This document shows, one piece after another, positions 13,454 through 13,530 of a stretch of 64,000 nucleotides of DNA. Source of the stretch: Escherichia coli (GTDB lineage: Bacteria > Pseudomonadota > Gammaproteobacteria > Enterobacterales > Enterobacteriaceae); NCBI RefSeq assembly GCF_001677475.2, contig NZ_CP015229.1. The stretch is one strand, 5' to 3'. The notes beneath the pieces are model-generated. The model was not told where the DNA came from. It saw nothing but the letters and a program-made list of their open reading frames with translations, and did no database searches. Position 1 is the first letter of the stretch, and every line of letters starts with the position of its first letter. Both the position numbers and the translations under genes were made by a program.

Positions 13454-13530
13454 TGGTTGCGGGGGCCGGATTTGAACCGACGACCTTCGGGTTATGAGCC
13501 CGACGAGCTACCAGGCTGCTCCACCCCGCG
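13454..13530 (-). tRNA. metY: Initiator tRNA-fMet (77 nt, CAU anticodon)
   Basis: Reverse complement reads CGCGGGGTGGAGCAGCCTGGTAGCTCGTCGGGCTCATAACCCGAAGGTCGTCGGTTCAAATCCGGCCCCCGCAACCA, the E. coli tRNAfMet sequence; position 46 is G. Confidence 0.95.

Follow-up and report, generated by a model that had tools for sequence, protein, structure and literature searches.

The stretch analysed here, referred to as the window, comprises 64,000 nucleotides of Escherichia coli DNA (RefSeq assembly GCF_001677475.2, contig NZ_CP015229.1). Two tRNA genes are called in it by ARAGORN, one of which is a tRNA-Met gene of 77 nt with the anticodon CAT that corresponds to the initiator gene metY (Table 1). The same gene reaches 61.4 bits against the Rfam tRNA model RF00005, for which the gathering score is 29, and it reads CGCGGGGTGGAGCAGCCTGGTAGCTCGTCGGGCTCATAACCCGAAGGTCGTCGGTTCAAATCCGGCCCCCGCAACCA. 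Every sequence feature that marks an initiator tRNA in bacteria is present, the CAU anticodon among them. In particular, the acceptor stem opens with a C1xA72 mismatch followed by Watson-Crick pairs from 2-71 to 7-66, the strands UCGGG and CCCGA of the anticodon stem provide the three consecutive pairs G29-C41, G30-C40 and G31-C39, and the D stem (GAGC with GCUC) contains the A11:U24 pair. The unpaired C1 and A72 are a determinant of formylation and block EF-Tu. Because the D loop holds residue 17a, the forty-seventh base of the gene in linear order is canonical position 46. Since the plus strand carries c at this point, position 46 of the tRNA is G, with G45 before it and U47 after it. G46 is the base that defines tRNAfMet1, and the A46 of the K-12-type tRNAfMet2 is absent, the base being G in the metY of the window and A in that of K-12. 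The first-pass annotation had placed the gene, its sequence context and the G at position 46 correctly.

Table 1. Features of the metY locus and of the gltD-yhcG junction in the window
Feature	Coordinates	Strand	Basis
metY, initiator tRNA-fMet (CAU), tRNAfMet1-type	13454..13530	-	ARAGORN, Rfam RF00005, alignments
Canonical position 46 = G (A in K-12 metY)	13484..13484	-	plus-strand read, alignments
Variable base at +15 after the tRNA	13439..13439	-	alignments, exact-match counts
argG, divergent neighbour	13878..15221	+	447-aa ORF; K-12 and REL606 annotation
Distal promoter-like site TTGACA-18-TATAAT	13623..13652	-	12/12 consensus matches; pattern match only
Proximal promoter-like site TTTGCA-18-TAGAAT	13546..13575	-	9/12 consensus matches; pattern match only
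rimP leader (metY-rimP interval), including terminator-like hairpins	13265..13365	-	Rfam RF01770, 102 bits
rimP, first protein gene downstream of metY	12795..13247	-	ORF 12795-13259; K-12 b3170 coordinates mapped via collinear alignment
nusA	11280..12767	-	495-aa ORF; collinear with K-12 b3169
infB (IF2)	8583..11255	-	890-aa ORF; collinear with K-12 b3168
54-bp junction, gltD to yhcG	55713..55767	.	blastn vs K-12; K-12 annotation; O55:H7 CB9615 annotation

The window is collinear with positions 3,304,760-3,375,932 of the K-12 chromosome (blastn), and its metY is the orthologue of K-12 b3171, a lone tRNAfMet gene between the divergent argG and the rimP-nusA-infB cluster, with the rimP leader following. 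The layout of the locus is collinear with both K-12 and E. coli B REL606, and the neighbouring argG shows that this locus is metY and not metZWV. The metZWV locus of K-12 is a tandem triplet between mltA and amiC, whereas the gene of the window is a single copy between argG and rimP. Upstream of metY, a consensus scan finds two sigma-70-like sites, the proximal of which ends about 16 nt 5' of the tRNA. Downstream, the terminator-like stems of the rimP leader occupy 13332-13309 and 13284-13272. The spacer between metY and rimP (13345-13453) contains blocks, at +1 to about +33 and at about +59 to +70, whose conservation among about 110 Enterobacterales species is 80-100% and that reach beyond the annotated Rfam rimP leader. 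This conservation suggests a processing or regulatory constraint on the spacer. Elsewhere in the window, tRNA-Leu(GAG) leuU lies at 17313-17399, and the RNA elements to be expected in an enterobacterium are all there at the Rfam gathering score, namely SraG (6468-6639), the S15 leader (6869-6983), naRNA4 (8496-8566), the greA leader (24052-24173) and ArcZ (45672-45779).

The gene was aligned with K-12 MG1655 metY (NC_000913 3318213-3318289), with the metZ-metW-metV cluster of K-12 and with the corresponding region of REL606. A single difference separates the window from K-12 metY within the 77 nt, namely G for A at position 46. When the five genes (metY of the window, and metY, metZ, metW and metV of K-12) are aligned with their flanks, position 46 is also the only variable site inside the tRNA: metZ, metW and metV all have G46 and each is identical to the tRNA of the window over 77 nt. 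Thus, the sequence of the window gene is that of the K-12 metZWV product, tRNAfMet1 (m7G46), G46 included, while its locus, flanks and downstream gene cluster are those of K-12 metY, which encodes tRNAfMet2 (A46). The metY of REL606 carries G46 and is likewise identical to the window within the tRNA. Both statements that the first-pass annotation had taken from the literature are borne out by these alignments: K-12 metY has A46, where a G would have contradicted the reading, and the metY of E. coli B has the G46 of metZ, metW and metV. Around the gene, about 240 of the 241 bp centred on metY are the same in the window and in K-12, the differences being position 46 and one upstream base. Over the same interval, REL606 departs from the window at that same upstream base and at the base 15 nt past the 3' end (+15), where E. 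coli B has T and the window has C.

The difference between K-12 and B at metY is already known and was published in 1992. PMC3017606, which cites Mandal & RajBhandary 1992, describes E. coli B as being without tRNAfMet2, a point on which K-12 differs, and attributes two separable initiator tRNA species to K-12. The contrast between A46 in K-12 metY and G46 in metZWV and in E. coli B metY is given in PMC5389676, and PMC8887418 agrees with it. In addition, an alignment of six E. coli strains (bioRxiv 10.64898/2026.04.16.719103) identifies K-12 metY as the sole metY that departs from the "canonical G46".

The distribution of the two alleles was then evaluated in 5,425 complete E. coli genomes by means of 91-nt probes that begin at base 17 of the tRNA and reach 30 nt beyond its 3' end. 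With this design, one mismatch brings the identity below 99%, and the metY flank lets the metY locus outrank the metZWV copies. The window type (G46 with C at +15) is found as an exact match in 4,698 genomes. The B type (G46 with T at +15) is exact in 312 genomes, among them B, BL21, C, HS, ATCC 8739 and natural isolates, and the K-12 type (A46) in 365; about 50 genomes have no exact match to any of the three probes. The metY of at least 5,010 genomes, or at least 92% of the 5,425, thus carries G46. All 60 of the A46 genomes among those listed are K-12 laboratory derivatives (MG1655, C600, DH5alpha, J53, DH1, NCM3722 and others). As an independent count of such derivatives, a 91-nt probe was designed to span the K-12-private yhcE::IS5 junction, at a distance of 47 kb from metY; this junction occurs in 341 genomes and A46 in 365, an A46 excess of 24, which may consist of K-12 derivatives that were cleaned of IS elements or carry deletions, or of natural isolates. 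Two spot checks gave G46 with the T flank in strain 204, a blood isolate, and A46 in strain K194T1-1017, which has a chromosome of 4.60 Mb and for which no host or source is recorded.

The genomes of the survey carry between 1 and 8 tRNAfMet genes each (median 4). Only 2 copies are found in several strains, such as NC101 and J53, and in genome IR53017 metZWV is present while no tRNAfMet copy has the metY 3' flank.

The polarity of the change can be read from related species. Species-representative genomes were scanned for exact matches to tRNA positions 30-76, with any base allowed at position 46, followed by the 5-nt 3' flank of metY, which is conserved across Enterobacterales. The matches listed include Klebsiella pneumoniae, Citrobacter, Enterobacter, Yersinia pestis, Serratia, Pantoea and Erwinia, as well as some Photobacterium and Vibrio; E. 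albertii, E. fergusonii, Salmonella and the main E. coli representative are not among them. G46 occurs in 122 of 122 metY-type outgroup genes among the matches listed (at least 120 species-representative loci). Among the full-flank outgroup genes listed, the whole 77 nt equals that of the window in 99 of 110, and the remaining 11 differ in the D loop only. Closer to the window, Escherichia whittamii (93.6% identity to the window) and a record labelled "E. coli E69" (93.7%) both have G46. Since all the outgroup genes among the matches listed have G46, sequence comparison identifies this base as the ancestral state of metY, and A46 as derived, an allele belonging to the K-12 laboratory lineage. 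The +15 base behaves differently: C is found in the window and in K-12, T in B/REL606, C, HS, ATCC 8739 and strain 204, and T also in 96% of the outgroup species among the matches listed. At this site, it is the majority state of E. coli (C) that is derived and the B type (T) that is ancestral.

Taken together, the metY of the window is almost certainly the ordinary ancestral form, that is, a stand-alone initiator gene heading metY-rimP-nusA-infB whose tRNA is identical to the metZWV product, tRNAfMet1. The informative mutation is the G46-to-A change of K-12 and not the sequence of the window. Other origins of the G were considered. It might be secondary, if an ancestral metY with the A46 of K-12 had regained its G through conversion by the metZWV genes. 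In favour of this, a metY/metV hybrid in GCA_019141265.1 is a probable case of recombination between the two loci. Such a conversion is nevertheless very improbable, as it requires the opposite polarity to the one observed, with G46 in all 122 outgroup genes among the matches listed and in at least 92% of E. coli, and A46 follows the K-12 laboratory lineage. An error of assembly, in which reads from the three identical metZWV copies overwrote a true A in metY, has even less to recommend it. The four genes are indeed near-perfect repeats of 77 nt, and paralogues can contaminate a short-read consensus, but 4,698 complete genomes have this allele within identical flanks, and the allele recurs in two independent drafts of the window's own lineage (L005, which is GCA_019141265.1, and L006).

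A further reading takes G46 as a sign of kinship with the E. coli B lineage in particular, in keeping with the G46 shared by REL606 and BL21 and with a literature that sets B against K-12. There is next to no chance that this holds. The tRNA of E. coli B metY is identical to that of the window, G46 included, but the identity of the DNA around it is only 98.6%; in a comparison over one and the same stretch of 25.7 kb, the window shows 98.58% identity to REL606 and 98.67% to K-12 (blastn). Moreover, the +15 base of the window is C and not the B-type T, and G46 is found in no fewer than 5,010 genomes of every sort, O157:H7, ST131, avian-pathogenic and environmental strains included. An affinity to B based on G46 was thus rejected on the flank base, the genome survey and the identity figures. 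The first-pass annotation had proposed the base as a strain-lineage marker, and this is valid only in part. Because G46 is ancestral and species-wide, it says "not K-12" and nothing on affinity to B, and with at least 5,010 of 5,425 genomes sharing it the marker has almost no resolving power.

The first-pass annotation had also linked the allele to non-K-12 gene content downstream of gltD. The difference is real, and it consists of a missing K-12 segment, with no additional foreign genes. The alignment with K-12 stops at the gltD stop codon (55713) and restarts at 55767: the 7,080-bp segment gltF-yhcA-yhcD-yhcE::IS5-yhcF of K-12 is absent, and 54 bp stand in its place. The gene order after gltD is yhcG, nanQ-K-E-T-A, nanR and dcuD, and the annotation of O55:H7 CB9615 has the same gltD-yhcG-nan layout. 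A probed 9-kb region is recovered as one contiguous match covering at least 80% in 4,427 of the 5,425 complete E. coli genomes. The yhcG gene of the window (55895-57022, plus strand) has an in-frame stop at 56396-56398, which changes W168 of the 375-aa K-12 protein to a stop, and is probably a pseudogene. The exact N-terminal YhcG fragment of 167 aa is on record on 50 contigs, and the nonsense mutation is therefore shared within a lineage rather than a one-off error. At 25668-25675, about 150 bp that K-12 and REL606 have between dacB and obgE, probably a repetitive extragenic element, are missing from the window.

The window probably comes from a rare, thinly represented E. coli lineage. Among the complete genomes searched (5,425 matched), none exceeds 99.0% identity to the window, the best values being 98.9% over the first 25 kb, 99.0% over 10 kb and 97.8% over the last 9 kb. 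The draft assembly GCA_018428245.1 reaches 99.96% identity over 7.6 kb, and the exact YhbX protein of the window, labelled Escherichia coli, is present on 44 contigs. A second draft of the lineage, GCA_019141265.1 (contig ABBDMP010000001.1), shares 99.97% identity with the window over 6.4 kb. At 6290-6520 of this contig, a tRNAfMet gene has the 5' flank of metY (the argG side) and, on its other side, the 3' flank of metV with the terminator and amiC; the match to the window runs on for 3 nt beyond the tRNA, at which point the metV flank begins. The hybrid reflects either recombination of the inverted metY and metV copies within the 77-nt repeat, with inversion of the chromosomal segment that separates the metY and metZWV loci, or a misassembly across the repeat. 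On the K-12 map the metY and metZWV loci are roughly 370 kb apart. That the four identical tRNAfMet genes are live recombination substrates in the lineage of the window is conceivable, though on balance unlikely. If exchanges between metY and metZWV were recurrent, the identity of the genes, G46 included, would be kept partly by concerted evolution and not by purifying selection alone, and the A46 of K-12 would represent a rare escape from concerted evolution.

According to established knowledge of initiator tRNAs, the metY transcript would be processed to the 77-nt tRNA, and TrmB, whose gene trmB is located outside the window, would methylate G46 to m7G46, which would join the C13-G22 pair in the tertiary interaction C13-G22-m7G46 of the tRNA core. 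MetRS would then charge the tRNA with methionine, the methionyl-tRNA formyltransferase would formylate it, and it would be brought with IF2 to the P site of the 30S subunit. For the tRNA of the window, formylation and initiation at the P site are predicted from its 100% identity to K-12 tRNAfMet1. A46 is not convertible to m7G, and K-12 therefore has two separable initiator species, in a mix of roughly 75:25. The G46 form of tRNAfMet is reportedly more stable and fitter than the A46 form, according to work from the Varshney laboratory in a 2024 issue of J. Bacteriol. If the metZWV genes of the strain, which lie outside the window, are canonical, a single electrophoretic initiator species would be expected, as in E. 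coli B.

All in all, the G46 of metY indicates that the window does not come from a K-12 derivative and otherwise has little significance. What is added to the published contrast between K-12 and B is a quantitative survey and an outgroup polarity, with K-12 as the outlier. The survey bears on engineered initiator tRNAs built on the K-12 metY (A46) scaffold and on whether A46 has any selective meaning. The "two initiator tRNA species" that textbooks give for E. coli are a peculiarity of the K-12 laboratory lineage and not a property of the species.
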